This document shows, piece by piece, positions 1-26,143 of a stretch of 35,142 nt of DNA. The notes below the pieces were generated by a model that made no database searches, was not told the origin of the DNA, and saw nothing but the letters and a program-made list of their open reading frames with translations. The position numbers and the translations under genes were made by a program. Numbering within the stretch: the stretch's first letter is position 1; every line of letters starts with the position of its first letter. The stretch comes from an uncultured Coprobacillus sp. (GTDB lineage Bacteria > Bacillota_I > Bacilli_A > ML615J-28 > CAG-698), in the NCBI GenBank assembly GCA_964534245.1, contig CAZHQU010000002.1, positions 1 through 35,142 on the forward strand, read 5' to 3'.

Positions 1-51
1 GATATAAATAAAATTTAATTTAGATAACAATATAAATATGTGAGGTATATT

Positions 52-2256
52 ATGAAAACAAAATCAATGAAAATAGTAGATAATAAAATCTATATGGGTA
101 ATTATTCTTTAGAAGAATTAGGTAAAAAGTATGGAACACCACTTTATGTGTATGATGAAATTGGATTAGTTGATAAAATCAATCGTTACAAGAACTCTTT
201 TAAGAGTGACAAATATGACTGTAGAGTAGTGTATGCGTCTAAAGCTTTTATTTGCCCAAGACTTGCTTCAATTTTAAGAGAAAGAAACGTTTATATTGAT
301 GCTATTAGTGCTGGTGATTTATACTTATTAAAACAATCTAATTATCCAATGGAAATGGTTGTTTTACATGGAAACAATAAATCTTATGCTGAATTAACTG
401 AAGCAGTAGAGTCTAACATTGGTTATGTTGTTGTTGATAACTATCACGAACTTAAACTTTTAAAAGAAATTACTGAAACTAAGAAGATGAAAGTTAGAAC
501 TTTATTTAGAATTAATCCTGGTATTGAAGGACATACTCATGCTTATATTGAGACATCACTTCTTGATTCTAAATTTGGTGAATCTATTTATGATAAAGAA
601 TTACAAGATAAAATCTTTAATTTGTATAAAGAAAGTGAATATATTGAATTTGATGGTTTCCATGCACATATAGGATCTCAAATTACTAATGGGGATTGTT
701 ATATTGCTTTGCAAAAGAAACTTATAGGTTTTATGAAAGAAGTTAAAGAAAAATATGGATTTGAGTTTAAGACTTTAAACGTTGGTGGAGGTTTTGGTAT
801 CAAGTATCTTGATGAAGATGAAGAACTAGATATTGAATCTTTACTTCCAAAATTAATTGAATCAATTGATGAAGAATTAAAAGCTAATGGCTTAGAAGTT
901 AAGAACTTAATGATTGAACCTGGTAGAAGTATTGTTGGAGACTCTTGTGTCACTATCTATACTTGTGGGGGAGTTAAGAGAACTTATGCTAATGTAGAAT
1001 ATATCTTTATTGATGGTGGTATGCCTGATAATATTAGACCTGCTTTATATGATGCTAAATATACTATTAAAAATGCTAGTAGATATGAAGATAAAGAATA
1101 TAAGAAATATAATATAAGTGGTAAATGCTGTGAAAGTGGTGACATTATTGCTAGAGGTGTTGAACTACCAGTTGCTAAAGTTGGTGACACTATTGTAGCA
1201 TTCACTACTGGTGCATATTGTTATTCTATGTCTATGAATTATAATGAATTAACAAAACCTGGTGTTATTTTTGTTAATGGCGATAAAGTTACTGAAGTTG
1301 TTAAGAGACAAACGCCAGCTGATATGTTATCTTGTCATGTGTTTACTGATGATGTGAAAATTTTTGATACTCATAGTGATATGTTATATGCTCTTGATCG
1401 TAAGTTGAAAGCAGGAGTAGAAAATCATTTTGAAGATTATCATGTTAATCAATTAAAGAATAGTGTAATCTCTGGTGGTTTATGGACAATGTATTCTCCT
1501 GATGACTTTGATTTAGTTGAAGGATTAAAGAATGCTTTAAAACAAATTGATATGTCTAAACTTCCTGGATTTAAAGTTATCTTAGGTTTAGAAGGATTAA
1601 GAAACTTAAAAACTGTTGAAGATTTAGATGAAATCTATGCATTGGGTTTCCGCCATGCGATGGTTACTTGGAATGAAGCTAATCACTTCGCAACAGGAGC
1701 TAGACCTGGAAAAGATGTAGACCCAAATAGAGGAATTACTGAAGAAGGTAAGAAATTATACAAACGTATGCAAGAGTTGGATATGATTATCGACTTAGCG
1801 CATTTAAACGAAAAGAGTTACTATGAAGCTTTAGAAATCGTTGATAAGAATATTATTTATTCTCACGGCTTATGTAAAGCATTATGTGATCACCCAAGAA
1901 ATCTGACTGATGATCAAATGATTGCTTTAAAGAAAGTTGATGGTTTATTTGGTTTAACTTTAGCTAATAACTTTGTAAGTCCTAATAAAGCGGAACAAGA
2001 TTTAGAACATTTCTTAGATCATTTAGATCATGCTGTTAAATTCATGAGCATTGATAATATTTGTTTTGGTTTCGACTTTATGGATTATTTAAGCGAATTC
2101 CCTAATTCAAATATCGTTGATGTATCAGACGCCACAAAAGCATATAGAATTATTGATGGAATGAGAAGAAGAGGATATAGTGAAGAAGATATTCAAAAAG
2201 TATGTTATAAAAACTTTTATGAAAGATATAAGGACAAAGTAGTTTATGGTAAATAA
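52..2256 (+). CDS. lysA: Fusion protein: diaminopimelate decarboxylase (PLP, fold-type III) N-terminal domain + M19 (renal-type) zinc dipeptidase C-terminal domain
   Basis: LysA motifs: VYASKAF (PLP lysine), GGGFGIKY, EPGRSIVG, GKCCESGD, GAYCYSMSMNYN. From about nt 1357 there are M19 motifs: FDTHSD (HxD), ILGLEGL, DLAHLNEKS, IYSHG, HPRNLTDDQ, FGFDFMD. The frame is continuous across the junction. The ORF track starts at GTG 40, but ATG 52 lies 6 nt after GAGG (42-45), so 52 is preferred. Confidence 0.8.
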   Translation: MKTKSMKIVDNKIYMGNYSLEELGKKYGTPLYVYDEIGLVDKINRYKNSFKSDKYDCRVVYASKAFICPRLASILRERNVYIDAISAGDLYLLKQSNYPMEMVVLHGNNKSYAELTEAVESNIGYVVVDNYHELKLLKEITETKKMKVRTLFRINPGIEGHTHAYIETSLLDSKFGESIYDKELQDKIFNLYKESEYIEFDGFHAHIGSQITNGDCYIALQKKLIGFMKEVKEKYGFEFKTLNVGGGFGIKYLDEDEELDIESLLPKLIESIDEELKANGLEVKNLMIEPGRSIVGDSCVTIYTCGGVKRTYANVEYIFIDGGMPDNIRPALYDAKYTIKNASRYEDKEYKKYNISGKCCESGDIIARGVELPVAKVGDTIVAFTTGAYCYSMSMNYNELTKPGVIFVNGDKVTEVVKRQTPADMLSCHVFTDDVKIFDTHSDMLYALDRKLKAGVENHFEDYHVNQLKNSVISGGLWTMYSPDDFDLVEGLKNALKQIDMSKLPGFKVILGLEGLRNLKTVEDLDEIYALGFRHAMVTWNEANHFATGARPGKDVDPNRGITEEGKKLYKRMQELDMIIDLAHLNEKSYYEALEIVDKNIIYSHGLCKALCDHPRNLTDDQMIALKKVDGLFGLTLANNFVSPNKAEQDLEHFLDHLDHAVKFMSIDNICFGFDFMDYLSEFPNSNIVDVSDATKAYRIIDGMRRRGYSEEDIQKVCYKNFYERYKDKVVYGK

Positions 2257-3319
2257 TAAAGTTAGAGAACTCATTGAAAGATTAGAAACAGCAGTTAAAG
2301 AAGGGATATTTCCAGGAGGAAATTTTGCTTTAGTATGTAGCGAAGGAACGTTTACTGGAACTGTTGGTAAAAAAGCCTTATTTCCAAAAGAAGAAGCTAA
2401 TGATATCGATACACTTTATGATATGGCATCATGCTCTAAAGTATTAAGTACAACAACTTGTGTTTTAAAACTTTTAGAACAAGGGAAATTAAAATTATTT
2501 GATACAGTAAAAAAATACTTGCCTAGATTTAAATATGAAAATATTCTTATATGGGACTTAATAACTCATACATCAGGACTTCCTGCTGGTGTAAGTGGAG
2601 TATGTAAGATTAAAAGTCGTGAAGAAGCATTAGATAAGATTTATGACTTAGATTTAATTTATGAAAAGAATACAAAAATAGTTTATTCTGATATCGGATT
2701 CATATTATTAGGATTTATAATTGAAGAGGTATCAGGAATGACTTTAGATAAATATGCTAAAGAAAATGTGTTTGATCCTTTAGAAATGTATGATACAGGA
2801 TACAATCCAGTTGACAAATTAAGATGTGCACCAACTGAAGAACGTAATGATGATATCGTAAAAGGTATAGTACGTGGAAACGTTCATGATGAAATGGCGT
2901 ATATCTTGGGTGGAGTTGCTGGGCACGCAGGACTATTTAGTACATGTAAAGACGTATCTCATTTTATTGAGATGGTTCTTAACTATGGTGAATACAATGG
3001 TAAAAAGATTTTATCAAAAGCTACTATTGACTTAATGTTCACTCCTCAAGTTCAAGAGAAAAAAGGTATTGCTTTAACTCTTAATACTCGTGGAATCGGT
3101 TGGATTGTACAAGGAGATTACTGCTCAGCTGGTGACTTAGCTAGCCCGGAAACAATACTTCATACAGGTTTCACTGGAACAAATGTGTTTATTGATCGAA
3201 TAAATATGGTCGGATTCTCTCTTCTTACAAATAGAGTTCATCCAACTAGACAAAATACAAAAATCATACCTTATAGAGGTATGTTAGGAAATTATATTAT
3301 TGCTAATTTTGGCGAATAA
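2246..3319 (+). CDS. Cytoplasmic serine hydrolase of the beta-lactamase/PBP fold; possible AmiE-like MurNAc-L-Ala amidase
   Basis: SxxK motif ASCSKV, YxN-like YSDIGF and KTG-like HTGFTG. No signal peptide. The start overlaps the upstream stop by 11 nt. The amidase role is inferred only from context (LdcA and NagZ nearby) and from the B. subtilis AmiE precedent. Confidence 0.7.
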   Translation: MVNNKVRELIERLETAVKEGIFPGGNFALVCSEGTFTGTVGKKALFPKEEANDIDTLYDMASCSKVLSTTTCVLKLLEQGKLKLFDTVKKYLPRFKYENILIWDLITHTSGLPAGVSGVCKIKSREEALDKIYDLDLIYEKNTKIVYSDIGFILLGFIIEEVSGMTLDKYAKENVFDPLEMYDTGYNPVDKLRCAPTEERNDDIVKGIVRGNVHDEMAYILGGVAGHAGLFSTCKDVSHFIEMVLNYGEYNGKKILSKATIDLMFTPQVQEKKGIALTLNTRGIGWIVQGDYCSAGDLASPETILHTGFTGTNVFIDRINMVGFSLLTNRVHPTRQNTKIIPYRGMLGNYIIANFGE

Positions 3320-3354: not shown

Positions 3355-4344
3355 ATGTGTAATGTTACATTAAAACCATTTAAGAAAGAAATGACTGAAG
3401 AAGTTGTAAAACTTTGGAATGAAAATGCTTATGGCCATACTATTTATGCTGAACTGTCTACTGAAGAATTTACTAGTAAATTCTTAAATAATCCTGATTA
3501 TAAAGAAGAAGGTAGCGTAGTAGCCTGTGATGGTAATGAAATAGTTGGTTTTGGTAATGCTATTTACAGATTAGGAACTGATCCTGCTGTTCAACCAGGA
3601 TATATCACTATGATTGTTGTAAAGATTGAATATCAAAGAAAAGGAATTGGCACACAAATTCTCAAATATCTTGAAGCGTTCTTAAAAGCTGAAGGTAGAA
3701 CATTTATTCGTAATTTCTTTGGTTCACCAATTAATTTAAAATGGTACGTTCCAGGATATGATAAACATGAACATGCTGGAGCACCTGCTGTTCCATATAA
3801 CACACCTTATTACTATTTGTTATTAGCAAATAGATATGTTTCAAATGGACAACAAGATGCATTCCATGTTGATTTAACTAAATTTGAAATGCCTAAGCCA
3901 GTATTAGATAAAATTGCTGAAAATGAAAAAGATGGATATACATTAACTTACTACGATCCAAAATTACATTATGGATTTGAAGAAATGTTTGACGCATTAA
4001 ATCATGATGGATTTAGAATGGCAGTAAGAAACGTATTAGCACAAGAAAACCCAGCTCCATTATTAATTGCTCAAAAAGATGGAGAAATCTTAGGATTCAC
4101 TGGACCAGTTAGAACTGAACCGAGTGGAAGAGCGTTCTTAGCAGGTGTTGCTATTCATCCAAAAGCTCAAAAACGTGGACTTGGTAAAACAATGTTCTGC
4201 GAATTATGTAATAGATCAAAACAAAATGGTGCTACATTCATGACATTATTTACAGGTAGTGACAATAAAGCTCGTAACATTTATTTATATGCTGGTTTAA
4301 GAATTGTTCAATCATTTAATGTTATGAGAAAAGATTTAGTTTAA
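3355..4344 (+). CDS. GNAT-family N-acetyltransferase with two tandem GNAT domains (329 aa)
   Basis: Two acetyl-CoA motif-A-like segments, QRKGIGTQIL (N-terminal half) and QKRGLGKTMF (C-terminal half). A GAGGAG RBS sits upstream of ATG 3355. Confidence 0.75.
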   Translation: MCNVTLKPFKKEMTEEVVKLWNENAYGHTIYAELSTEEFTSKFLNNPDYKEEGSVVACDGNEIVGFGNAIYRLGTDPAVQPGYITMIVVKIEYQRKGIGTQILKYLEAFLKAEGRTFIRNFFGSPINLKWYVPGYDKHEHAGAPAVPYNTPYYYLLLANRYVSNGQQDAFHVDLTKFEMPKPVLDKIAENEKDGYTLTYYDPKLHYGFEEMFDALNHDGFRMAVRNVLAQENPAPLLIAQKDGEILGFTGPVRTEPSGRAFLAGVAIHPKAQKRGLGKTMFCELCNRSKQNGATFMTLFTGSDNKARNIYLYAGLRIVQSFNVMRKDLV

Positions 4345-4465: not shown

Positions 4466-5401
4466 ATGCTATTAAAACATCTATCAAAAGGTGATACAAT
4501 TGGGATTATTAATCCATCATTTAAAAACCCTATAGACTCATTGACTAGATATAGCAAAATGATTGAGTGCATTGAAGGTTTAGGCTATAAAATTAAATTT
4601 GGTAAATCATTCTTTGCTGAAGAGGGTTATTTAGCTGGTAGTGATGAACTTCGAGCAGAAGATGTTAACGATATGTTTAGAGATGAAGAAGTTAAAGCAA
4701 TCGTTTGTATGCGTGGTGGTTATGGCGCTAGTAGAATGATTGATAAAGTTGACTTTGCTTTGATTAAAGAAAATCCAAAAATTATTTGTGGATTTAGTGA
4801 TATTACCGTGTTATTAAATGCAATTAGTAAGAAATGTGATATTCCAACTATTCATGGTTTGGTTGGTATATATATTGGATCTAACTCTTGTGATGAAGGT
4901 TCACTTGATGATTTTTGGAAAGTTCTTACTGAAAAACAAAAAGGAAGAGTTTTACAAAATCCTAATGATAAGTGTAAAACGTTAGTGGGTGGTAAAGCTA
5001 CTGGAAAACTAGTTGGTGGTAACTTAAGCTTAGTAGCAACGCTTGTTGGATCTGAGTATGAAGTAGATTTCACTGATAAAATTGTATTCTTAGAAGAAGT
5101 TTCTGAGGAACCTTACCAAGTTGATAGATATCTTTCAGCAATCCGTCTTCGTGGAATGTTTGAAAAGGCTAAAGGTTTTGTGTTTGGATATTTTACTGGT
5201 AGTGAACCAAGTGAAAGTCGAAAAGGAACTCAAACAATAATGGATGTAATAAAACATTATGTTGAAAAATTAGGAAAACCAGTTATATATGATTTTGCAT
5301 GTGGTCACAGTTTTCCATTTGTTAACTTACCGATAGGCACTACTGTTACACTAGATGCCGATGCAAAAACAATAACAATTGAGGAGGAAATTTATGAGTA
5401 A
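4466..5401 (+). CDS. ldcA: LD-carboxypeptidase (peptidase S66; muramoyl-tetrapeptide carboxypeptidase)
   Basis: S66 triad context: GFSDITVLL (Ser), FLEEVSEEPYQVDRYL (Glu), CGHSFPFVNLPIG (His). About 310 aa, with no signal peptide. Confidence 0.85.
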   Translation: MLLKHLSKGDTIGIINPSFKNPIDSLTRYSKMIECIEGLGYKIKFGKSFFAEEGYLAGSDELRAEDVNDMFRDEEVKAIVCMRGGYGASRMIDKVDFALIKENPKIICGFSDITVLLNAISKKCDIPTIHGLVGIYIGSNSCDEGSLDDFWKVLTEKQKGRVLQNPNDKCKTLVGGKATGKLVGGNLSLVATLVGSEYEVDFTDKIVFLEEVSEEPYQVDRYLSAIRLRGMFEKAKGFVFGYFTGSEPSESRKGTQTIMDVIKHYVEKLGKPVIYDFACGHSFPFVNLPIGTTVTLDADAKTITIEEEIYE

Positions 5402-6710
5402 ACCAATTAAAAGATTTTGTTTTGAGGGGAATATTAAATATTTTGGATCTAATGTTGATGTAACGATTCCGGATGAATATGTTGAAAAAGATGTTGAACT
5501 TCGTGGTGCGTGGTTATCGACTGTTGCAAATATTGATATTCCTAAGATGAAGGATACGTCTTTAGAAAGTCAAGAAGAATTAAAGAAATATTTATTAAAG
5601 GTAATTGACACATTGAAGGAATTTAATATGAATACTATTATTTTCCAAGTAAGACCAGTTAATGATGCTTTATATAAATCTAAATTAAATCCATGGAGTT
5701 CTGTATTAACAGGTGTTGAAGGTATGGATCCTGGTTTTGATGTGTTTGGATACTTCTGTGAAGAAGCTAAGAAAAATAATATTGATGTTCATGCTTGGAT
5801 TAATCCATATAGAGCAGGAAGAATTGACATTGTTGAAGCGAAGATGACTAAAGAAGAATTCATTGCCACTCTTGCTCCAAATAACTTTGCAAGAATGCAT
5901 CCAGAGTGTACAATTCTTACAAAACAAAATAAATTATTATTAGATCCTGCTAATGAATTAGTAAGAGAATATGTAAGTGATAGTATTGTTGAGATTGCTA
6001 AAAACTATGATATTAAAGCAATTCACATTGATGATTATTTCTATCCATATGAACAAGTAGCTGATCCAGATGAAGAACAAAAACAAAAAGAAGCTGGATT
6101 TGAAAAAGTAAGTGACTTTAGAAGACATAATGTTAATTTAATGATTGAATTAATTCATAATAAACTTGCTAAACTTGACAAGAAAGTTGAATTTGGTATT
6201 AGTCCATTTGGTATTTATCGTACTGATAGTAAATATTTTGATGAAGAAGATGAATCTGCTTGGGAATTTGGATCTAATAATGCTAAAGGCTGTACAACTA
6301 ATTATAAAGGTTTATATGCTGATGTTTATAAGTGGATGGAAGAAGGCTGGATTGACTATGTAGTTCCTCAAGATTATTGGGACTTAGATAATACTAAATT
6401 AGATGAAGAAGGAAAAGAAGTTTGCGTAGTTAGATATGCTGATATCGCTAAATGGTGGAGTTGGGCTGCTGAAAAGACTAATACTAAACTTTATATTGGT
6501 CAAGCATTCTATCGTTATACTAAGGAAGGCCCTTGGGCTAATCCAGAAGAAATTCCTAATCAATTAAAATATAATCAAAACTATGAAAACATTCTAGGAA
6601 CAATTTTCTTTACATTTAGAGATTTCTATCGTGAAGATTGTGAAAGTATTGTTGAAGGAAAGAAACTTCTTAAGACTTTATGGACAAAACCAGCTAAAAG
6701 TGGTTATTAG
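5394..6710 (+). CDS. Glycosyl-hydrolase-like family 10 protein (GHL10/UPF0748, YddW/DigH/YngK-like), cytoplasmic
   Basis: Family-typical segments ELRGAWLSTVANIDIP, FQVRPVNDALYKS and VHAWINPYR. No signal peptide. The ORF track starts at TTG 5379, but ATG 5394 follows GAGGAGG (5381-5387), so 5394 is preferred. It overlaps the ldcA stop. Confidence 0.7.
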   Translation: MSKPIKRFCFEGNIKYFGSNVDVTIPDEYVEKDVELRGAWLSTVANIDIPKMKDTSLESQEELKKYLLKVIDTLKEFNMNTIIFQVRPVNDALYKSKLNPWSSVLTGVEGMDPGFDVFGYFCEEAKKNNIDVHAWINPYRAGRIDIVEAKMTKEEFIATLAPNNFARMHPECTILTKQNKLLLDPANELVREYVSDSIVEIAKNYDIKAIHIDDYFYPYEQVADPDEEQKQKEAGFEKVSDFRRHNVNLMIELIHNKLAKLDKKVEFGISPFGIYRTDSKYFDEEDESAWEFGSNNAKGCTTNYKGLYADVYKWMEEGWIDYVVPQDYWDLDNTKLDEEGKEVCVVRYADIAKWWSWAAEKTNTKLYIGQAFYRYTKEGPWANPEEIPNQLKYNQNYENILGTIFFTFRDFYREDCESIVEGKKLLKTLWTKPAKSGY

Positions 6711-8177: not shown

Positions 8178-10058
8178 ATGATAAATTTATCCCCAAACGT
8201 TTCTAAATTTAAATCACTTATCGGTGAGTATGTTTGTACAAAACCGCTTAAGTATTTCTTTTTGGAACAAAAAGTAAACGCTTTTATTTTCTTAAACCTT
8301 GAAGCACAAAAAGCCGATGATGAAGATAAGGCTGATATCGTTTTTAAATTTAATGAAACTCTCAAACCTGAGAGTTATTCTTTAAAAGTTGATGAAAAGG
8401 TTATCATTGAATATTCTTCTGAATCTGGTGCTTATTATGCTATCCAAACTCTAAAGTGGTACGTTAAAGAATTTGAGGCTGATATTGGAGTTAATATTAA
8501 AATTCCTAAGTTTGAAATTTATGATGAACCTAAAACTAAAGTAAGAGGTTTGATGCTTGATATAAGTCGTGATAAAGTTGCTTCGCTAGAAACAATTAAG
8601 AAAATAATTGATTTAATGTCAGAACTTAAGATGAATCATCTAGAGTTGTATGTTGAAGGCTTCTCTTTTGAATATAAGTCATTCAAAGAGTATTTAGAAG
8701 AAGATGGATTTATTACTTTAGATGAATACTTGAAACTTGAAAAGTACGCTAATGAAAGATTTATTGATTTTGTCCCTAATCAAAATGGATTCGGTCATAT
8801 GACTGATTGGTTGGCAAAAGACGAATTAAAAGATTTAGCTATTTGTCCTAACGGGATAAATTTATGGGGTCGTTGGAGAAAACCAAGTACATTAGATCCT
8901 TTAAATCCAGGATCATTAGAACTTGTTAGAAAAATGTATGCGGATATGCTTCCATATGCAAATTCAAAATATTTTAATATGAATTTTGATGAACCGTTTG
9001 AACTTTCTAGAGGTCTTCCTGAAGGAGAAGACGCTGAAGAGGTTTATTTAGAATTTGTTAATAAAGTTTATAAAGAAGTTAAGAAATATGATAAAATACC
9101 ACTTCTTTGGGGTGATGTTTTAGTTAAACATGAAAGCAAATGGGATAAACTTCCTAAGGATATGATTTTTATTGACTGGGGTTATGATGCACCTTATTCA
9201 TTTGCAAATCATGCGAAAAAACTTAGTGAGAAGAAAGTTCCATTTATGTGCGCACCAGGAACAACAAGCTGGTCAAGCTTCTTAGGAAGATATATTGACT
9301 GGTATGAAAATATCAAAAATGCAGTTGATGCTGTGTATGATTATTCTGGTGAAGGTGTTATCTTAACTGACTGGGGTGATTTTGGTCACTTGCAATTTTG
9401 GTCAATAACTTTAGCTCCACTGATTTATATGGGATTATATTCATGGAGTCATAAAGAAGGAATTATATTAAAAGTTAGAGATTATTTAAATCAATATTTA
9501 CAAGATAAAGATAAATTAATAGGTGATTTAATCTTAGATCTCGAAAATAGCTATCGTTATGATAATGATTATTGTGGTAATGGTAGTAGAAGTTTTTATA
9601 CATTTATGTGGGCAAGTTGTGCATTTGAAGATTCTAAAAAACTAGGAATTACTCCCTGTGAGTATTTCTTGTCTAAGGTCAAGGGTGTTCAACTGTCTAA
9701 GAAAAAATTTAAGGTTATCAACGAGCTCTTAGACTTAAAATGTCAAGACCTGGATTTAATAGATAGGCACAATGATGAACTAGATTTAGTTTGTGAAGAA
9801 CTAAAACAATCAGTTCGAACTGTTAAATTAATTACTTATCTAAGTGTTGCGTTAAATAAGGAAGAAGATTTAACTAGAGAAGAAAGGCTTAACTATTTAG
9901 ATTATGTGTTGAGCAAAAAAGATGAGCACATTGATAAACAAAGAACGTTATGGCTTAAACGAAATAAGTCTGGTGGATTGGAAAGATCTATTAGCAGACT
10001 TACTGAGTTTTTCAGATTAGTCGAGGAATCAAAATTATGTCTACAAAATTATTTCTAA
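8178..10058 (+). CDS. GH20-like beta-N-acetylhexosaminidase, cytoplasmic
   Basis: VRGLMLDISRDK (GH20 substrate-arginine region), MNHLELYVEG, and a candidate catalytic Asp-Glu pair in NMNFDEPFEL. No signal peptide. The family call rests on motif resemblance only. Confidence 0.6.
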   Translation: MINLSPNVSKFKSLIGEYVCTKPLKYFFLEQKVNAFIFLNLEAQKADDEDKADIVFKFNETLKPESYSLKVDEKVIIEYSSESGAYYAIQTLKWYVKEFEADIGVNIKIPKFEIYDEPKTKVRGLMLDISRDKVASLETIKKIIDLMSELKMNHLELYVEGFSFEYKSFKEYLEEDGFITLDEYLKLEKYANERFIDFVPNQNGFGHMTDWLAKDELKDLAICPNGINLWGRWRKPSTLDPLNPGSLELVRKMYADMLPYANSKYFNMNFDEPFELSRGLPEGEDAEEVYLEFVNKVYKEVKKYDKIPLLWGDVLVKHESKWDKLPKDMIFIDWGYDAPYSFANHAKKLSEKKVPFMCAPGTTSWSSFLGRYIDWYENIKNAVDAVYDYSGEGVILTDWGDFGHLQFWSITLAPLIYMGLYSWSHKEGIILKVRDYLNQYLQDKDKLIGDLILDLENSYRYDNDYCGNGSRSFYTFMWASCAFEDSKKLGITPCEYFLSKVKGVQLSKKKFKVINELLDLKCQDLDLIDRHNDELDLVCEELKQSVRTVKLITYLSVALNKEEDLTREERLNYLDYVLSKKDEHIDKQRTLWLKRNKSGGLERSISRLTEFFRLVEESKLCLQNYF

Positions 10059-10077: not shown

Positions 10078-13000
10078 ATGAATAAAATTACTTATAATCC
10101 AAATTTAATGAAGAAATTAGTTTTAGGGTTAATTTGTTTATTATTAGTTGCTTGGTTAGCATATGCGATTATATCAAGCTATACTGATAAAGGACATATT
10201 ACTTCTAATTCAAGTGCTTCTTCATCAGAAATTCCAACGGGTTCTTATCAAAATTATATTAAATTAACAGCTGGAATTGAAGAATCTAAATTAGAATCAT
10301 TTGATATCAGCTATGTAACAGATGCAAATGAAGATAATCAATATTCTGCTATTTACAAAGATTATACAAGTACTAGACTTGAAAACGAAATCGTAATTGA
10401 TGGCAATGATGCAGAAGTTGAAGGTGAAAGCTCAGAATTAAATTGGCCAAGTACTGATGGTTATAAAGATATGTATGATAAATACTTAAATGGTGAAACT
10501 GGTGCTTATACTGATGAAACTGGTAAAGTTTCTTTCACTATTAAGGGAATTCAAAAAACAGGTTTTTATAATTTAATGATTAGTTACTTCATTCCTAAAG
10601 GAAAAGGCTCAGTATCTCAAAGAAAGATTTTAGTTAATGGTGAAGTTTTATTTGAAGAGTTATTAAACTATTCATTTGCTAGAGAGTATGAAGACAGTGC
10701 TGATAGTAAGGATGCTAATGGAAATTTCAAGACTGACGTTAATGGTAATGACTTAAAACCAAGTCAAACAGAAATCTTTGTTTATCATGAAGATGAATAT
10801 ATTCAAGATAGAACAGGTTATATTTCAAAACCTTATATGATTCTATTACAAGGTGGACAAGATAACGTTATTACTTTTGAAAGTGTTAAAGAAAATCTTC
10901 TTATTACTGAATTAAAAGTTTTAAGCATTGATTCTTACAACATTCCAACATATGAAGAATATATTGCTAAATATCAAAGCGAATTAAATAAACAAATGAC
11001 AATTAAAGATATAAGCACTTATAAGTACGAAAGTGAAGGTTCTGGTAGAACATCTACTACTCCTACATTATATCCTACTACTGATAGAACAAGCGCAACA
11101 AACTATCCAACTGACCCAGTTAGAACTAAGTATAATGCAATTGGTGGTTCAAAATGGACAACAGCTGGTGACTCTATCAGTTGGCAAATTACAGCTGAAG
11201 AAGCAGGTTTATATCAATTATCATTCCGTGCTAAACAAGATTTAGCTCGTGGTATGTTCGCAACAAGAAAACTTTATGTTGATGGTAAGCAACCATTTGC
11301 TGAAGCTGAAAACTTAAGATTCTATTATAACTCTGAATATAGCTTAGTTACATTAGGATCTGGTGAAGGCGAAGAACAAGAAACATATTATATCTACTTA
11401 GATGAAGGAACTCATACAATCACTTTACAAGCAACATTAGGTGATTATGCTTCTGCAATAAGTAGAGTTAACCAAGTTGTAGATAAATTAAATGCTATTT
11501 ATTTAAAGATTATTGCAATCACTACAACTAGCCCTGATGATTATACTGATTATGGTATTTATGGTGAAAACAGTCGTTTAGGTAATGATGAAGAAGGTAA
11601 TCCAATTGATGTTCAAAAAATCTTCTCTGATGCTGCGATTGAAATTAATTCTATTTCTCAATATATCACTGAATTAACAGGTGAAAAGAGTAGCTTAAAT
11701 AATGTATTGGATAAATTAGTATTACAAATCGGTGGTAAAGTGGATTATAATGGTGACGGCGAAGCTGAAGATGTTGGTGGATTTGCAACAAAACCTCGTA
11801 ATATTACTAAAGACTTAGCTGCATTCAAAACTAACTTATCATCATTAGGTACATGGGTACTTGATATTCAAGAACAATCTTTAACAATTGAATCATTCTA
11901 TGTTGCTCCAAAAGGTGCTGAACTTCCAAATGCTGAAGATAACTTCTTCAAAGGCTTATGGTTCAGTATTCGTGGATTCTTTGCTTCATTCTTCTTCGAC
12001 TATGAATCAATTGGAGTAATCGATACAGAAGGATTTGAAAGAGAAATCGAAGTTTGGTTCTTAACAAGTGAAACTTCAGGTCGTGAACAAGCAAACGTAT
12101 TAAAGAATTTAATTGATATGTACTTCACTTATGAAAGTGAACAAACAGAACAAGAAGTAGATAATTATAAAGATTATGATTGCAATGTAATATTAAAAGT
12201 ATTAGCTGCTGGTGTATTACTTCCTGCAACTCTTGCTGGAACTGGCCCAGACGTAGCAATCAACGTTGGTGAAGGTTTACCAATGAACTATGCACTTCGT
12301 GGTGCTGTATATGACTTAGAAAGATTTAATTATAGCGATTGGGATAATCCAAACTTAGTTAAAGGTGGCCCAACTGCTGCAAACTATACTGGTGATTTCG
12401 ATAAGGCTGTTGAAGAAAGATTCACTTCTGCTGAAATGGTTCCATTTAGATTAGATGACCAATTAGAAGATGGAACTCCAGTTACTGGTTATTATGGTTT
12501 CCCTAACACTGCTTCATTCTTAGTAATGTTCTATAGAACAGATATCTTTGAAGAAAATGGTTGGGAAGTTCCAAGAACATGGGATGATGTAATTGATTTA
12601 GCTAGAGAATTAAGTGTTATGAACTTAGGATTCTACATTCCATTTGAAGGTGCGGGTTCAACAATCTTTGCGACTTTATTATATCAAATGGGTGGTCAGT
12701 TCTACTTAGAAGATAATACAGCATGTGCATTTTCACAAGAAGTTGCTAAGAAAGCATTCGAACAATGGTGTAGCTATTTCTGTGATTATGGTTTTGATAA
12801 AGCTGCGAACTTTACAAACAGATTCCGTAGTGGTGAAATGCCAATTGGTATCTCTAGTTATACATTATATAATACATTAGCGGTATTCGCACCTGACATT
12901 GCTGGTAAATGGGCATTTGCACCATTACCTGGTATCGAACAAGAAGATGGAACAATTGAAAATACTGGTACTTTAACAATTACTTCATCTATTATTATGG

Positions 13001-13386
13001 AACAATCAGATGATCTAGAAGCGTCTTGGGCATTCTTAAAATGGTGGACATCAACTCCTGTTCAAGAAAAATATTCAATTGAAATTGAATCAATCTTAGG
13101 AAGTGGAGCTCGTCATAACACTGCTAATAGATACGCACTTGAAAGTTTACCATGGAGTGCAAGCGAATTAGAAACTTTAACTTCTCAATTTGATAATGCA
13201 TTCGGTATTCCTGAAGTGGCTGGTGGTTACTACATTAGTCGTAACTTAGAAAATGCTATTCGTGAAGTTATTAACAATGACTCAAATCCACGTGAAACAT
13301 TTGCTGAATATGTAGAATTAATCGACAGTGAAATTACACGTAAACGTGAAGAGTTTGAATTTAAACTTGCTGAGGAAAGTAGGTAG
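10078..13386 (+). CDS. Giant membrane-anchored extracellular solute-binding protein (1102 aa): N-terminal signal anchor, two CBM-like beta-sandwich modules, C-terminal family-1 sugar-binding domain
   Basis: TM segment LVLGLICLLLVAWLAYAII with no lipobox. Two CBM-style segments: TGFYNLMISYFIPKGKGSVSQRKILVNGEV and AGLYQLSFRAKQDLARGMFATRKLYVDGKQ. The C-terminal ~450 aa has a binding-protein signature (YRTDIFEENGWEVPRTWDDVIDLAREL). Confidence 0.7.
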   Translation: MNKITYNPNLMKKLVLGLICLLLVAWLAYAIISSYTDKGHITSNSSASSSEIPTGSYQNYIKLTAGIEESKLESFDISYVTDANEDNQYSAIYKDYTSTRLENEIVIDGNDAEVEGESSELNWPSTDGYKDMYDKYLNGETGAYTDETGKVSFTIKGIQKTGFYNLMISYFIPKGKGSVSQRKILVNGEVLFEELLNYSFAREYEDSADSKDANGNFKTDVNGNDLKPSQTEIFVYHEDEYIQDRTGYISKPYMILLQGGQDNVITFESVKENLLITELKVLSIDSYNIPTYEEYIAKYQSELNKQMTIKDISTYKYESEGSGRTSTTPTLYPTTDRTSATNYPTDPVRTKYNAIGGSKWTTAGDSISWQITAEEAGLYQLSFRAKQDLARGMFATRKLYVDGKQPFAEAENLRFYYNSEYSLVTLGSGEGEEQETYYIYLDEGTHTITLQATLGDYASAISRVNQVVDKLNAIYLKIIAITTTSPDDYTDYGIYGENSRLGNDEEGNPIDVQKIFSDAAIEINSISQYITELTGEKSSLNNVLDKLVLQIGGKVDYNGDGEAEDVGGFATKPRNITKDLAAFKTNLSSLGTWVLDIQEQSLTIESFYVAPKGAELPNAEDNFFKGLWFSIRGFFASFFFDYESIGVIDTEGFEREIEVWFLTSETSGREQANVLKNLIDMYFTYESEQTEQEVDNYKDYDCNVILKVLAAGVLLPATLAGTGPDVAINVGEGLPMNYALRGAVYDLERFNYSDWDNPNLVKGGPTAANYTGDFDKAVEERFTSAEMVPFRLDDQLEDGTPVTGYYGFPNTASFLVMFYRTDIFEENGWEVPRTWDDVIDLARELSVMNLGFYIPFEGAGSTIFATLLYQMGGQFYLEDNTACAFSQEVAKKAFEQWCSYFCDYGFDKAANFTNRFRSGEMPIGISSYTLYNTLAVFAPDIAGKWAFAPLPGIEQEDGTIENTGTLTITSSIIMEQSDDLEASWAFLKWWTSTPVQEKYSIEIESILGSGARHNTANRYALESLPWSASELETLTSQFDNAFGIPEVAGGYYISRNLENAIREVINNDSNPRETFAEYVELIDSEITRKREEFEFKLAEESR

Positions 13387-13394
13387 TTAACATT

Positions 13395-14384
13395 ATGGAA
13401 GTAAAGAACGAACAAAAACTAAACATTTTCCAAAAAATTAAAAAATGGTATTTAGAAAAACAACGTAAGATGGAAAATTGGAGTAAGAATGGTAAACCTA
13501 TACGTCGTAAATTATATTTGAATAGAAAATTATATTTAATGATGTTCCCTTATTTATTACTATTCTTTGTATTCACAATTCTTCCAGTTATAATCAGTTT
13601 CTTAATCAGTTTTACTGACTTTAACTTATTAGAATTTCCACCAAATTGGCGTGGATTTAGAAACTATTTAGACTTATTCTTAGAAGATACAATCTTTATA
13701 ATAGCTGTTAAAAACACATTGATTATTGCTGTTATCGTTGGTCCAGGTGGATATTTATTATCATTCGTATTTGCATGGTTAATCAATGAGTTACCAAGAT
13801 ATTTGAGAGCTGTAGTAACATTTATGTTCTACGCTCCAGCCTTAACGGGTGCCGTATCAATTTGGGCTTTAATCTTTAGTAGTGATATGTATGGATGGGC
13901 AAACTCATTATTAATTAATATGAATTTTATTCGTGAACCAATATTATTCTTAAAAGATACAGATTATATTTTACCAATTGTTATTGTAGTTCAATTATGG
14001 ACAAGCTTAGGTGTTAACTTCTTAACATTAATTGCTGGTCTTAAAGGTGTAAATAAAGAATTTTATGAAGCTGGTGCCATCGATGGTATCAGAAATAGAT
14101 GGCAAGAATTATGGTATATTACTTTACCATGTATTAAAGAACAATTATTATTTAGTGCCGTTATCCAAATTTCAAATACTCTTGGAGTAGGTGCAATTAC
14201 AACAGCACTTTGTGGATTCCCTTCAGTTGGTTATGCTGGTCATACAATTGTTAACCACTTAACTGACTACACTAGTACAAGATATGAATTAGGTTATGCT
14301 TCAGCAATAGCCACATTACTATTCGTAGCATCAATCGGATTAAATAGTTTAATTAGAAAAGTTATTAGAAAGGTAGGTTCTTAA
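13395..14384 (+). CDS. Sugar ABC transporter permease (MalF/LplB-like)
   Basis: Multiple TM segments and the EAA loop EAGAIDGIRNRWQELWYITLPCIK. Confidence 0.85.
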   Translation: MEVKNEQKLNIFQKIKKWYLEKQRKMENWSKNGKPIRRKLYLNRKLYLMMFPYLLLFFVFTILPVIISFLISFTDFNLLEFPPNWRGFRNYLDLFLEDTIFIIAVKNTLIIAVIVGPGGYLLSFVFAWLINELPRYLRAVVTFMFYAPALTGAVSIWALIFSSDMYGWANSLLINMNFIREPILFLKDTDYILPIVIVVQLWTSLGVNFLTLIAGLKGVNKEFYEAGAIDGIRNRWQELWYITLPCIKEQLLFSAVIQISNTLGVGAITTALCGFPSVGYAGHTIVNHLTDYTSTRYELGYASAIATLLFVASIGLNSLIRKVIRKVGS

Positions 14385-14386
14385 AA

Positions 14387-15373
14387 ATGGCTAAAGAAGT
14401 TAAACAAGCAAAGTCTTTTGAACAATTAGAACAAGAACGTTTACAGGCTAAGAACAATAAAAAGGCTCGCCATATAGATTCTCGACCTTTTGCTGAAATC
14501 TCGGATGCTAAATTAAAAAGAAGATCAAAAATTAAGAAACGTATAAATCGTTCAAAATTTGGGGATACAGTTTTATTCATCTTCCTTATCGGATCATCAA
14601 TCTTAAGTATTTTACCACTTATTATGATTGTAAATAATGCCTTCAAACCATTAGATGAAATTTTCCTATTCCCTCCAAAGATTTTCGTTATGAATCCAAC
14701 TCTTAATAACTTCGCTGACTTAGGAGTTGTACTTGGAACTTCACTTGTTCCATTCTCAAGATATTTATTCAATACTGTTTATGTAACTTTACTTGGTACA
14801 TTTGGACACGTAGTAGTTGCTTCAATGTGTTCGTATGTATTATCTAGATATAAAGTTCCTGGTGGTAAATTAATATTCTCATTAATCGTTTATGCATTAA
14901 TGTTCCCATCAAGTGTTACAGCAACTCCTAACTACATTATTTTAACTTATTTAGGATTAATTGATACACACTGGTCAATCGTATTACCAGTTATCGGTGG
15001 TACTATGGGTCTATTCTTAATGAAACAATTTATGGATCAAATTAGTATGGAATATATTGAATCAGCTAAACTAGATGGTGCTGGTGAATTTAGAATTTAT
15101 TGGACAATTGTTATGCCACTTGTAAAACCTGCTTGGATTACACTTGTTATCTTAAACTTCCAAAGTTTATGGAATACATATGGTTCAACAACAATTTATC
15201 GAGAAGACTTAAAGATGTTAAGTTACGCAATCAACCAAATTGCCTCTGCTGGTGTTGCTAGAACTGGTACATTAAATGCCGTTCAATTGGTTATGATTAC
15301 AGTTCCAATTGCCGTATTCATTTTCTCACAAAGTAATGTTATGGAAACAATGGCTCATTCAGGTATGAAGTAA
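14387..15373 (+). CDS. Carbohydrate ABC transporter permease (MalG/LplC-like) with a ~60-aa basic N-terminal extension
   Basis: EAA loop ESAKLDGAGEFRIYWTIVMPLVKP. It starts 2 nt after the upstream stop. Confidence 0.85.
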   Translation: MAKEVKQAKSFEQLEQERLQAKNNKKARHIDSRPFAEISDAKLKRRSKIKKRINRSKFGDTVLFIFLIGSSILSILPLIMIVNNAFKPLDEIFLFPPKIFVMNPTLNNFADLGVVLGTSLVPFSRYLFNTVYVTLLGTFGHVVVASMCSYVLSRYKVPGGKLIFSLIVYALMFPSSVTATPNYIILTYLGLIDTHWSIVLPVIGGTMGLFLMKQFMDQISMEYIESAKLDGAGEFRIYWTIVMPLVKPAWITLVILNFQSLWNTYGSTTIYREDLKMLSYAINQIASAGVARTGTLNAVQLVMITVPIAVFIFSQSNVMETMAHSGMK

Positions 15374-23786: not shown

Positions 23787-25352
23787 ATGAGTAAAAAAAA
23801 TATAGATAAAATAGACAATATAAACAATTTAAATATAGATAATTTAACTTTAGAAGAAAAAGTGGGACAGTTATTAATGTTTGCTTTTCATGGCACTGAG
23901 TTTAATGAGCAATTATTAACTCAAATTGAAAAGTTAAAAGTAGGAGGAGTGATATATTTTGGAAGAAATATAGAGACTCCAGAACAAGTTTTAAAAATGA
24001 ATAAACTTATTCAAGCAAAAGCTAATATTCCTCTTTTCGTTGGTGTTGACCAAGAAGGTGGAACAGTCCAAAGAATCATTAAAGGAGTAACTCCTTTTCC
24101 TGGTGCGATGGCTATTTCAGCAACTTCACTTTCTAATTATGAAGTTAGTAAATGTGTTGGTGATGATTTAAGAAAAATGGGATTTAATATGAATTTTGCA
24201 CCCGTTGGTGATGTAAATAATAATCCTAATAATCCAGTTATTAATTCTAGATCATATAGTGATGATCCAAAAGTATGTGCTAAATATGTTATAAGTGGTG
24301 CTCAAGGATTTTTAGATAGTGGGGTTATTCCTACATGTAAACATTTCCCTGGTCATGGTGACACATCAGTTGATTCTCATGTTAGTTTACCAACTGTTAA
24401 TAAAGATATAGAAAGTTTAGAAAAAACTGAACTTCTACCGTTCAAGATGGCTATAGATGGCGGATTACAAGGCATTATGGCTTCTCATATCCTTTATCCT
24501 GCTATTGACGATAAATTCCCAGCTACTCTTTCAAAATCGATTATAACTGATTTATTGAAGAAGAAAATGGGGTTTGATGGATTAATTGTTACTGATTCGC
24601 TTACAATGGGAGCAATTAACAATAACTATTCACATAGAGAAATTGTAAGACTTGCTGTAAATGCGGGGATTGATTTAATGATATTCTGTGGTAAAGCAGA
24701 CTTAAATGATCAAGAGGACATTTATAATTGTTTATTAGAAGAAGTTAGAAATGGAAATATTCCAATGGTGAGAGTAAATGAATCTGTATCTAAACTTCTA
24801 AAGTTTAAAAAACATTATGTAATTAATAATTCATTTACTTGTGAATATAGTGAAGATGAAAAAAGAACTATTGGAACAAATTTATCTCGTAAAAGTATTA
24901 CATTAGTTAAAGAAAATAATTTCCTACCATTAACTGACAAAACATTAGTTATTTCCCCTAAAATTAAGTTATTTAGTTTGGTTGATAATGAAAATGATGA
25001 ATATGTTAGTTTAGGTAATGTGTTTAAGAAATATAATATCAATTATGATGAAATTGTTTATTCTGACGAAAGTGATATTTATGATTTAATTAATGATAAA
25101 CAAAGTAAATATGATAAGATTATTTTATGTACATATAACGTTACAAAAGAAGATTATCAAGTTAAACTTTGGGATAAGCTTGACAAAAATAAAACTATGG
25201 TTGTATCGATGAGATCACCATATGATATTAATCATTTAGAAAACGTAAGTAATTATATTTGTATTTATGAAGCGACTTTACTTGCGCTAGAAAGTTTAGT
25301 AGAATCATTTATAAATAATAAATTCTTTGGAAAATTACCTGTTAGTTTATAA
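23787..25352 (+). CDS. nagZ: GH3 beta-N-acetylglucosaminidase (NagZ/YbbD-type, two-domain), cytoplasmic
   Basis: GVDQEGGTVQR, KHFPGHGDTSVDSH (NagZ Asp-His dyad region) and IVTDSLTMGA (nucleophile Asp). No signal peptide. Confidence 0.85.
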   Translation: MSKKNIDKIDNINNLNIDNLTLEEKVGQLLMFAFHGTEFNEQLLTQIEKLKVGGVIYFGRNIETPEQVLKMNKLIQAKANIPLFVGVDQEGGTVQRIIKGVTPFPGAMAISATSLSNYEVSKCVGDDLRKMGFNMNFAPVGDVNNNPNNPVINSRSYSDDPKVCAKYVISGAQGFLDSGVIPTCKHFPGHGDTSVDSHVSLPTVNKDIESLEKTELLPFKMAIDGGLQGIMASHILYPAIDDKFPATLSKSIITDLLKKKMGFDGLIVTDSLTMGAINNNYSHREIVRLAVNAGIDLMIFCGKADLNDQEDIYNCLLEEVRNGNIPMVRVNESVSKLLKFKKHYVINNSFTCEYSEDEKRTIGTNLSRKSITLVKENNFLPLTDKTLVISPKIKLFSLVDNENDEYVSLGNVFKKYNINYDEIVYSDESDIYDLINDKQSKYDKIILCTYNVTKEDYQVKLWDKLDKNKTMVVSMRSPYDINHLENVSNYICIYEATLLALESLVESFINNKFFGKLPVSL

Positions 25353-26138: not shown

Positions 26139-26143
26139 TATTA

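Follow-up and report, generated by a model that had tools for sequence, protein, structure and literature searches.

A gene on the forward strand of a 35,142-nt window of DNA from an uncultured Coprobacillus sp. (the whole stretch analysed here, to which all coordinates refer) encodes a single polypeptide in which a diaminopimelate decarboxylase (LysA) is followed by an M19 dipeptidase. We think it probable that this is a bifunctional cytoplasmic LysA–M19 enzyme heading an operon for peptidoglycan fragments, and that its LysA half serves salvage—i.e., obtaining lysine from peptidoglycan—rather than the end-step of de novo synthesis. LysA is nearly always taken for the final step of lysine biosynthesis, and fused proteins of this kind are labeled simply "diaminopimelate decarboxylase" in public databases. 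It combines two familiar enzyme kinds in a new, uncharacterised form. No structure in the PDB has the LysA–M19 architecture, and a literature search for a LysA–dipeptidase fusion found no description, in agreement with the original prediction, which knew of no characterised enzyme of this architecture. Literature searches on M19 in peptidoglycan recycling and on DAP/lysine metabolism in Acholeplasma returned nothing relevant.

Is the fusion a true gene? The fused lysA–M19 gene occupies 52..2256 (+), a single ORF of 734 aa plus stop. The ORF listing of the window gives the frame as 40..2256 (+), with ATG 52 as the likely start and a Shine-Dalgarno sequence, GAGG, read off the sequence at 42..45 (+), 6 nt 5′ of that ATG. 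Between nt 1300 and 1400 the frame is open, with neither stop nor frameshift, which confirms the one uninterrupted frame originally described. The linker, previously placed at about nt 1335–1356, lies at 1342..1353 (+) and comprises about four residues (F-T-D-D, residues 431–434); by homology it corresponds to the region where SD, stop, and start overlap in split pairs. A sequencing or assembly error that erased a stop codon between two genes would give the same picture, and relatives do carry split versions whose genes are only 1–12 nt apart or overlapping. Against such an error stand at least 110 independent protein clusters at 90% identity with the fusion architecture (domain-architecture check), the four nearest reference genomes (L001–L004), all of which read through the junction, and an independent assembly (L046, 92% amino acid identity) with the identical uninterrupted frame. 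The codons of the window and L046 differ by 223 synonymous and 61 nonsynonymous changes, which are distributed across the two halves as well as the junction; those at the junction are mostly synonymous, and the junction region is, judging from the codons, under purifying selection. The chance of an artefact is negligible, and the fusion is a true gene. Internal initiation at Val435 (GTG) is also unlikely, as the window has no SD there and L046 has GTT in that place.

The LysA half (residues 1–430; 52..1341, +) is a fold-type III PLP-dependent meso-diaminopimelate decarboxylase by its match to TIGR01048, its alignment with 1hkv, and Foldseek. It scores 412 bits against the NCBIfam lysA equivalog TIGR01048 (cutoff 297.9) over residues 10–427, matches Pfam Orn_Arg_deC_N (E = 1.9e-45) and Orn_DAP_Arg_deC (7e-17), and aligns end to end with Mycobacterium tuberculosis LysA (1hkv). 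The AF2 model of residues 1–430 (pLDDT ~95) has the two-domain fold, a TIM-like barrel plus a beta-sandwich, and Foldseek places it at TMt 0.92 to the DAPDC structures 5x7n, 1tuf, and 1hkw. The key residues (K64, H206, G245–G247, E289–R292, R329, Y333, C360, E361, and Y389) are invariant. Among 56 aligned homologues this holds for the PLP lysine K64, EPGR (289–292), and CESGD (360–364), for H204/H206-I-G-S209 (the HIGSQ motif) and the G245–G247 phosphate loop, both of which align to M. tuberculosis LysA, and for all of R292, R329, Y333, C360, and E361, whose equivalents in published LysA structures we take to bind the distal L-centre of meso-DAP. With this residue set present, the domain is predicted to decarboxylate meso-DAP to L-lysine.

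The M19 half (residues 435–734; 1354..2253, +) is a renal-dipeptidase-type domain by PF01244, PDB alignments, and AF2/Foldseek. It scores 205.9 bits against Peptidase_M19 PF01244 (gathering threshold 26), with the best stretch covering profile positions 104–315; the region 440–505 is shorter than in the profile, and the HxD segment at the N-terminus therefore aligns on its own. Val435 aligns with Met1 of stand-alone M19 orthologues. The ligands of the binuclear metal site—H441/D443 of HxD, the bridging E514, H584, H605, and D675 of DF-D—do not vary among orthologues, whether fused, split, or stand-alone. H614-x-R616-N617, which aligns to hprn in 3lu2 and 3ly0, is invariant too; its R616 is a putative carboxylate-binding arginine, presumably the counterpart of Arg230 in the HxRN motif of DPEP1, which binds the C-terminal carboxylate of the substrate. 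An equivalent of DPEP1 His152 was absent from the PDB alignments, where the window protein has W540 (TWNE). Because Lmo2462 (TWNN) and the Rhodobacter enzyme (VWS) also lack that histidine, it is not universal in bacterial M19 proteins and is probably not a family-defining residue. The M19-only AF2 model (pLDDT 94.6, pTM 0.92) has eight strands and forms a complete (beta/alpha)8 amidohydrolase barrel; its top 20 Foldseek matches are all M19 (TMq 0.76–0.83), and among the solved M19 homologues are complexes with mimics of L-Ala-D-Ala and L-Leu-D-Ala. Each domain is complete and, from its sequence, appears competent for catalysis. The earlier description of a complete LysA-type decarboxylase with PLP-Lys, CESGD, and EPGR motifs, joined to a complete M19 dipeptidase with all metal-ligand motifs, therefore holds: the decarboxylase motifs are present and invariant with the HMM score above cutoff, and the metal ligands are invariant in the 56 homologues. 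A NagA-like deacetylase function for the M19 half is ruled out by its family membership.

What surrounds the fused gene? In relatives the genes 5′ of the fusion are housekeeping (SRP RNA, dus), with the operon directly following dus, and the fusion therefore heads the cluster. All operon genes described below are on the forward strand. The stop codon of the fused gene is overlapped by a gene (2246..3319; PF00144, E = 4e-50) for an S12 beta-lactamase-fold serine hydrolase, a PBP4B/AmiE-like protein and putative MurNAc-L-Ala amidase that is present in every LysA-containing cluster. Its best NCBIfam match is PBP4B (181 bits, below the cutoff of 385), and a PDB sequence search returned generic esterase and beta-lactamase matches only; presumably it has the same fold as Bacillus subtilis AmiE. 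The role of AmiE has been described (PMC8054146). There follow a GlmA-like tandem GNAT acetyltransferase (3355..4344; Pfam), a putative GlcN/glucosaminide N-acetyltransferase with a weak match to the 328-aa tandem GNAT 5kf1 (E = 1.7e-4); an LD-carboxypeptidase of the S66 family, LdcA/YkfA-like (4466..5401; PF02016 and PF17676); and a GHL10 glycoside hydrolase (5379..6710; PF02638), homologous to the catalytic domain of Clostridioides difficile Cwp19 (PDB 5oq2, E = 4.8e-69), a peptidoglycan lytic transglycosylase (PMC6016235). Farther along are a GH20 beta-N-acetylhexosaminidase-like protein (8178..10058; Pfam), conserved in its operon position; a giant solute-binding protein (1,102 aa) with two ABC permeases (10078..15373), conserved 3′ of GH20 in relatives, the N-terminal part of the former giving a weak, below-threshold CBM35-like match; and a GH3 protein (NagZ-type), NagB (GlcN-6-P deaminase), and a second tandem GNAT (23787..27133; domain scans). 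The link of the operon to peptidoglycan rests on LdcA, the Cwp19 homologue, the PBP4B/AmiE-like hydrolase, GH3, NagB, and the GlmA-like GNAT. The LD-carboxypeptidase and AmiE-like hydrolase that the original prediction had placed in an operon headed by the fusion are both there.

The operon order is conserved in ~40 species-level genomes, and its hosts are uncultured ML615J-28/CAG-698 and Acholeplasmataceae-type Bacilli, genome-reduced inhabitants of guts and digesters. The presence of LysA in a cluster goes with that of LdcA (30/38 vs. 0/9 clusters, Fisher P = 1.8e-5). Translations judged by eye show no evident signal peptide on the operon enzymes, which are therefore taken to be cytoplasmic. 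An L-box lysine riboswitch was found neither in the window nor in five related loci, and the window holds no MurQ/SIS-domain or MurK-like protein. Pfam scans that covered every window ORF of 100 aa or more, together with the extra genes of related clusters, found no gamma-D-Glu-mDAP enzyme (MpaA/M14, YkfC/NlpC-P60) and no L-Ala-D/L-Glu epimerase (MR_MLE). A mercapturate/thiol role for the triad of M19, PIG-L, and GNAT was set aside, as the GNAT resembles GlmA and the triad lies among peptidoglycan glycosidases. Genes with no evident relation to the rest also ride along in the operon, QueH in 8 relatives and an AKR/Fe-S gene in the window, which makes adjacency by itself an imperfect guide to common function.

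How stable is the fusion among its hosts? Among 44 reference genomes, 26 have the fused gene, in 17 the slot is filled by two genes that are translationally coupled, and in the remaining 1 the two lie apart; at least three switches between the fused and split states are needed to account for this distribution. The fusion is evolutionarily labile, and lysA nevertheless adjoins the M19 gene in 43 of the 44 genomes despite repeated remodeling of the junction. A translationally coupled lysA–M19 pair can exist in two interchangeable states, of which the fusion is one; being fused would secure co-expression and perhaps a complex but is not mechanistically required. In the genome-context look-up, a relative (P0001, 92% identical) stood in for the window protein. 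M19 orthologues without LysA occur in the wall-less Haploplasma modicum and in peptidoglycan clusters lacking LysA. These keep 48–49 of the 50 family-invariant positions checked, with one (L034) keeping 47. Searched as a single sequence, the H. modicum M19 recovered only itself and one distant match, and a profile scan took its place. None of the other long M19-containing proteins is an independent LysA fusion: each is a tandem M19 protein, a Maf–M19 protein, or one with an N-terminal extension. A distant M19 of Anaerosphaera (L037) was dropped, its context not being operonic.

These genes can be arranged into a putative salvage pathway. Muropeptides would be imported by the ABC system; the GlmA-like GNAT would re-acetylate GlcN, after which GH20, GH3, and the Cwp19-like GHL10 would, by homology, strip the sugars. 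The AmiE-like S12 hydrolase would then detach the stem peptide, and LdcA, going by its family membership, would remove D-Ala4. The M19 domain would cut the stem peptide at an L-Xaa-D-Xaa bond; L-Ala-D-Glu is the most probable one, a prediction suggested by the preference of the family for L-Xaa-D-Xaa together with the operon context; the M19 half would in that case be a core stem-peptide dipeptidase. Finally, the LysA domain, whose catalytic residues are observed, would convert free meso-DAP to L-lysine. The step that liberates free meso-DAP is missing from this model because no gamma-D-Glu-mDAP enzyme was found in the window or related clusters. In B. subtilis and Escherichia coli, L-Ala-D-Glu is handled by YkfB/YcjG plus a dipeptidase (PMC3305447). 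In this operon, which encodes no L-Ala-D/L-Glu epimerase, the step would be filled by an enzyme that hydrolyses L-Ala-D-Glu directly; according to a 2012 source, such a hydrolase had not yet been described in bacteria. The hosts fit a salvage role: Field et al. 2024 described these orders as short of many biosynthetic reactions and dependent on salvage, and predicted for them either no wall or one of the m-DAP type for which some precursor steps are missing (PMC10868615).

Does the pairing imply that the two active sites work in series? The original prediction had read the fusion as channelling, with a stem-peptide fragment such as L-Ala-D-Glu or a DAP-containing dipeptide being cleaved and the released meso-DAP decarboxylated. 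In true channelling M19 itself would release meso-DAP, from gamma-D-Glu-mDAP or the L,D-dipeptide mDAP-D-Ala, and pass it to the fused LysA site. Several observations point that way. M19 is the sole operon peptidase without an assigned bond, no other gamma-D-Glu-DAP peptidase was found, mDAP-D-Ala is formally an L-Xaa-D-Xaa dipeptide and so belongs to the preferred M19 substrate class, and both activities remain adjacent or fused across at least three rearrangements. However, the two proteins are unfused and separately encoded in 17 of the 44 genomes, so that channelling is not required, and the mDAP-D-Ala bond is already covered by LdcA. To our knowledge, characterised M19 enzymes cleave alpha-peptide bonds and not gamma-glutamyl bonds. 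Moreover, M19 orthologues with nearly the same invariant set occur without LysA, both in wall-less H. modicum and in clusters that lack LysA and LdcA alike, which makes a dedicated meso-DAP supplier unlikely. We consider true channelling unlikely, and obligatory channelling is not supported. What survives of the original prediction is lysine salvage from peptidoglycan, favored by the conserved catabolic operon, the salvage-reliant hosts with their reduced genomes, and the lack of a lysine riboswitch; channelling and the supply of meso-DAP by M19 are weakened.

Two further readings concern the LysA half itself. It could be an ordinary biosynthetic enzyme, doing the housekeeping job of completing de novo lysine synthesis, whose gene became neutrally fused to a neighboring dipeptidase gene. 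This would suit its passing of the lysA equivalog model with every canonical residue conserved, the lability of the fusion, and an operon that directly follows dus and carries unrelated genes (QueH, AKR/Fe-S), as well as the m-DAP-type wall predicted for ML615J-28 (PMC10868615). Yet neutral fusion sits poorly with a lysA–M19 adjacency that persists in nearly every genome through repeated junction remodeling, with the co-occurrence of LysA and LdcA, and with the absence of LysA from sister clusters beside a Mur ligase in apparently walled relatives. A lysine riboswitch was not found in the window or the five related loci, and the host orders are described as having little biosynthesis and much salvage (PMC10868615). 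We judge an ordinary biosynthetic role to be distinctly improbable. The other reading is that LysA acts on meso-DAP within the stem peptide, decarboxylating its free D-centre and converting DAP-type to Lys-type peptides, with M19 trimming the product. The D-centre of DAP is indeed free in uncross-linked stem peptides, and fusion to a peptidase would suit a peptide substrate; but R292, R329, Y333, and E361, whose equivalents in solved LysA structures bind the carboxylate and amine at the distal L-centre of free DAP, are all invariant. With these residues kept, free meso-DAP is the favored substrate, and editing at the peptide level is highly improbable. Salvage of lysine from peptidoglycan by a fused or coupled pair is thus the reading we prefer.

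A bolder version of this salvage reading, which we offer tentatively and hold to be possible rather than probable, makes the LysA–M19 pair, fused or complexed, a dedicated stem-peptide-to-lysine module in which M19 directly hydrolyses L-Ala-D-Glu or, unusually, gamma-D-Glu-mDAP; with LdcA, it would enable gut Bacilli with a reduced wall or none to live off the peptidoglycan of their neighbors and so cover a lysine auxotrophy. Such a module, if true, would parallel in bacteria the conversion of DAP to lysine that has been ascribed to bacterivorous protists. If the salvage reading is true, the peptidoglycan of other bacteria would be a lysine source for genome-reduced Bacilli hosts, and LysA would gain a new catabolic role. 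A distinct M19 subfamily would become a concrete candidate for direct hydrolysis of the L,D-bond in stem peptides, a step otherwise taken by an epimerase and a dipeptidase. For the uncultured lineages ML615J-28, RF39, and Acholeplasmatales, reconstructions of metabolism would improve and cultivation could be guided (e.g., by muropeptide supply).

How does the operon compare with known recycling systems? With B. subtilis ykfABCD and E. coli LdcA–MpaA–YcjG–PepD it would share cytoplasmic breakdown of stem peptides, in which an LD-carboxypeptidase acts first and free DAP, Ala, and Glu come out; unlike them, it lacks a YkfC/MpaA-type peptidase and a YkfB/YcjG epimerase and has M19 and a dedicated LysA instead. 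With B. subtilis murQRP-amiE-nagZ-namZ and Clostridium acetobutylicum GlmA, which is reportedly a GlcN re-acetylating tandem GNAT, it would share the dismantling of muropeptides by a combination of such a GNAT with a NagZ-type GH3 and a putative amidase, the AmiE-like S12 protein. The B. subtilis genes differ from the window operon, whose enzymes have no evident signal peptides and so would be cytoplasmic rather than secreted, and which lacks MurQ, MurP, and NamZ and contains a Cwp19-like GHL10, GH20, and PIG-L.

At the level of single enzymes, the M19 half shares with Lmo2462 (3lu2/3neh), Sco3058, the Rhodobacter protein 3ly0, and human DPEP1 the barrel, the HxD/Glu/His/His/Asp metal site, and the HxRN arginine. 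Like Lmo2462, it is compact (~300 aa) and has a TWN motif where DPEP1 has its His152 motif. It differs from all of these in being fused or translationally coupled to LysA, in being cytoplasmic with no membrane anchor, and in having invariant residues of its own (e.g., Y481, S482, F486, R517, N518, and M677). The LysA half resembles characterised LysA enzymes (EC 4.1.1.20; M. tuberculosis 1hkv, Corynebacterium glutamicum 5x7n) in fold (TM 0.92), in scoring above the TIGR01048 cutoff, and in conserving the PLP lysine, phosphate loop, EPGR, DGGM-DN-R-ALY, and CESGD. Unlike them, the window protein adds a C-terminal M19 and heads a peptidoglycan-degradation operon with no lysine-biosynthesis context and no L-box, and its role is probably salvage rather than de novo synthesis. 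The bifunctional aspartate kinase/DAP decarboxylase NF006515 likewise unites LysA with a second enzyme in one polypeptide; that fusion joins two steps of lysine biosynthesis, whereas in the window fusion the partner of LysA is a peptidase from an operon for degradation, and the window protein scores 172 bits against NF006515, far under its cutoff of 802.

Is the fusion of diaminopimelate decarboxylase (LysA) to an M19 dipeptidase a real gene? In the window sequence the reading frame at 40..2256 (forward strand) is unbroken, without a stop or frameshift across the junction at nt 1300-1400, and encodes 734 residues counted from a probable ATG start at 52, which GAGG precedes at 42-45. The original prediction of both enzymes in a single frame (52-2256) was borne out by profile searches, with matches far beyond chance: Orn_Arg_deC_N (E 1.9e-45) and Orn_DAP_Arg_deC (7e-17) at residues 32-387, the NCBIfam lysA equivalog TIGR01048 (412 bits; cutoff 297.9), and Peptidase_M19 in the C-terminal part (205.9 bits; cutoff 26). 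The M19 match begins at profile position 104 solely because the profile has a longer segment between HxD and the bridging Glu than the window protein does. The continuity predicted between the domains also holds in the closest relative, L046, an independent assembly with 92% amino acid identity. Because L046 keeps the frame through 223 synonymous and 61 nonsynonymous codon changes, which are distributed across the linker and both halves, an assembly artefact is ruled out as far as possible without reads.

Both halves are complete, as had been claimed, with LysA motifs and M19 metal ligands that are conserved in homologues, and each half clearly belongs to a known family. Mycobacterium tuberculosis LysA aligns end to end with the N-terminal 430 residues (E 2e-80). 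Two homologue sets, one of 110 full-length proteins and the other a 56-sequence alignment, both showed invariance or at least 99% conservation for the PLP lysine K64, HIGSQ 204-209, the GGG phosphate loop 245-247, EPGR 289-292, the DGGM-DN-R-ALY block (R329, Y333), CESGD (C360, E361), and Y389; among them are the residues that, in solved LysA structures, bind free meso-DAP at its distal L-centre. The second half aligns with bacterial and human M19 dipeptidases, and its invariant residues are H441-x-D443, E514, H584, H605, D675, and the HxR616N carboxylate-binding motif; Trp540 (TWNE) occupies the position of DPEP1 His152, as does a Trp in Listeria Lmo2462 (TWNN). AlphaFold gave confident models: the full-length protein with pLDDT 92 and pTM 0.63, which leaves the interdomain orientation undefined, and M19 alone with pLDDT 94.6, pTM 0.92, and eight strands. 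Foldseek matched the first domain to DAP decarboxylases (TM 0.92) and the second to M19 enzymes in all of the top 20 matches (TM about 0.8), including complexes with L-Ala-D-Ala and L-Leu-D-Ala phosphinate mimics; the structure search found no PDB chain spanning both.

How widespread is this architecture? It is far from unique to the window, being shared by no fewer than 110 clusters (90% identity level), with identities of 48-92%. All named clusters are called “diaminopimelate decarboxylase”; the architecture is thus already in public databases, labeled only as LysA, and our literature search found no published description of it. An exhaustive phmmer search with the M19 half (1.84 billion representatives) returned one fused representative, and no second LysA-M19 architecture among the best 150 matches. 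The closest “stand-alone” LysA proteins occupy the same syntenic slot, each with an M19 gene of its own following after 1-11 nt, as seen on several independent contigs. At the species level, reference genomes divide into 26 with fused genes, 17 with split neighbors, and 1 with the genes apart. In one split junction, AAAGGAGAGAAATAATG, the stop overlaps the start and M19 begins MK(V/I)FD-HSD, and such junctions are a textbook case of predicted translational coupling. The window linker reads F-T-D-D and then Val435 (GTG), the residue aligned to the start codon of split M19 genes. Fitch parsimony on a neighbor-joining tree of concatenated LysA and M19, without branch support, requires at least three switches between fused and split and puts the fused state at the base. 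As such, the fusion is an evolutionary toggle. The lone genome with lysA in the cluster yet not adjoining M19 (L095, 235-13545) has the order AmiE-like, GNAT, PIG-L, LdcA, LysA, three small genes (one a LytTR DNA-binding protein), M19, GHL10, and may represent a prefusion state.

The gene neighborhood places the pair in a peptidoglycan context. Upstream in relatives lie SRP RNA, dus, a tRNA-type deaminase, and thymidine kinase; the lysA-M19 pair therefore heads the cluster. LdcA and an AmiE-like hydrolase do lie downstream, as predicted, in an order conserved in about 40 genomes: S12 hydrolase (2246-3319), tandem GNAT, PIG-L deacetylase (in many relatives, absent from the window), LdcA (4466-5401), GHL10 (5379-6710), GH20 (8178-10058), and a giant solute-binding protein with permeases, with GH3, NagB, and a second tandem GNAT farther on. 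The best NCBIfam match of the S12 beta-lactamase-fold hydrolase is PBP4B. The two GNATs (3355-4344 and 26144-27133) are paralogs, both 329 aa long; the first is a weak match to the 328-aa tandem-GNAT structure 5kf1, which we take to be Clostridium acetobutylicum GlmA. GlmA is described as a GlcN/glucosaminide N-acetyltransferase (Reith and Mayer 2011, as cited by PMC4680927). This suggests that the GNATs re-acetylate de-N-acetylated peptidoglycan sugars ahead of GH20/GH3 cleavage. The GHL10 protein, which has no signal peptide and would be cytoplasmic, is a strong homologue of the catalytic domain of Cwp19 (E 4.8e-69), a surface autolysin of Clostridioides difficile that acts as a lytic transglycosylase on peptidoglycan (PMC6016235).

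M19 also occurs in two settings without LysA, where it retains 48-49 (47 in L034) of the 50 family-invariant positions checked. One is Haploplasma modicum, which is cultured and wall-less, together with related MAGs, in some of which PIG-L and tandem GNAT come next. In strain ATCC 29102 (L031, 10001-13317) and two further loci (L032, L050) the order is M19, PIG-L, tandem GNAT, sometimes followed by a HAD phosphatase, and this module holds no LysA, AmiE-like gene, LdcA, or glycosidase. The other comprises clusters of other Bacilli (M19 39-48% identical) ordered AmiE-like, GNAT, PIG-L, GHL10, M19, GHL10, GHL10, GH20; LysA-less relatives carry two to three paralogous GHL10 genes per cluster, some on proteins of 730-840 aa. 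Some LysA-less clusters adjoin a Mur ligase and LacI regulator: in the apparently walled L103 (1951-5816) and L110 (242-4169), a MurC/Mpl-like ligase (419-423 aa), a LacI-family regulator, and TyrRS lie upstream, which hints at recycling rather than pure catabolism. LdcA is present in 30 of 38 LysA-containing clusters versus 0 of 9 LysA-less ones (Fisher p = 1.8e-5); by this pattern, LysA and LdcA act like an accessory module that serves DAP-type stem peptides. Gene content points to an M19 enzyme that works independently of both and is the older, core component of the system.

The best-supported reading of these gene contents is a salvage LysA that would make lysine from the meso-DAP of imported muropeptides. 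These would lose their sugars, the AmiE-like hydrolase would set the stem peptide free, LdcA would take off D-Ala4, and the LysA domain would decarboxylate free meso-DAP to lysine. No N-terminal signal peptide is evident on the window's enzymes (translations judged by eye), and the pathway would therefore be cytoplasmic and fed by an ABC importer. The named relatives, which come from guts, rumen, and digesters, are “Coprobacillus sp. CAG:698,” Acholeplasmataceae, Acholeplasma sp., Mollicutes, and Bacilli MAGs. CAG-698 belongs to order ML615J-28, predicted to have an m-DAP-type wall, to miss precursor steps, and likely to need to scavenge muropeptides; Acholeplasmatales is treated as a peptidoglycan-deficient order (Field, Bowerman and Hugenholtz, PMC10868615). 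It is quite improbable that the decarboxylase is an ordinary enzyme of de novo lysine synthesis: across these orders synthesis reactions are generally missing and salvage reactions retained (PMC10868615), and we found no lysine riboswitch in the window or five related loci.

What would M19 cut? Most probably an L-Xaa-D-Xaa bond, for which L-Ala-D-Glu is the obvious candidate; no YkfB/YcjG-type epimerase is encoded in the operon, and as of 2012 a direct L-Ala-D-Glu peptidase was undescribed, the known route being epimerase plus dipeptidase (PMC3305447). The weak point of the salvage pathway is the gamma-D-Glu-mDAP bond, which would be cut either by M19 or by an enzyme encoded elsewhere. That M19 itself frees meso-DAP and channels it to the fused LysA is favored by the lack of an MpaA- or YkfC-type enzyme in any cluster copy examined, and we consider it unlikely. 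Bacillus subtilis takes peptidoglycan apart sequentially with NagZ, AmiE, and NamZ (PMC8054146). The window operon resembles this amiE-nagZ-namZ system, B. subtilis ykfABCD, and Escherichia coli LdcA/MpaA/YcjG/PepD; it differs by the lack of MurQ, a gamma-D-Glu-DAP peptidase, and an epimerase, and by the inclusion of LysA and M19. More interesting than the fusion are the putative catabolic use of LysA and an M19 subfamily as a candidate core peptidoglycan-peptide enzyme in near-wall-less gut Bacilli.

Several further features accompany the cluster. Unrelated hitchhiker genes sit between GHL10/LdcA and GH20: in the window an aldo-keto reductase with a 4Fe-4S region at its C terminus (6853-7905), and in eight relatives epoxyqueuosine reductase QueH (L008, 7574-8173, and seven other loci). 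In the 1102-aa solute-binding protein (10078-13386), SBP_bac_1/8 is confined to the C-terminal third and the N-terminal region weakly resembles CBM35, its 22.2 bits falling short of the cutoff of 28; the protein may catch glycan directly at the cell surface. A second transporter block (15384-23726) encodes two further permeases, a membrane protein with a Yip1 domain, a DUF5696 protein of 1190 aa, and a protein of 590 aa in which an NHL repeat is faintly recognizable; the window holds no ABC ATPase gene for either permease pair. A few kilobases upstream of the operon, L046 alone among the relatives examined has an 826-aa TIR_2-domain protein (1673-4153), a possible defense gene. The codirectional cluster ends with two proteins of ~1000 aa bearing multiple Big_2 Ig-like domains (27130-33305), probably surface proteins. 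A DDE transposase (DDE_Tnp_1_6/DUF772; 33464-34600, minus strand) lies opposite to the cluster and coincides with the sole GC-skew reversal in the window, at ~33 kb.
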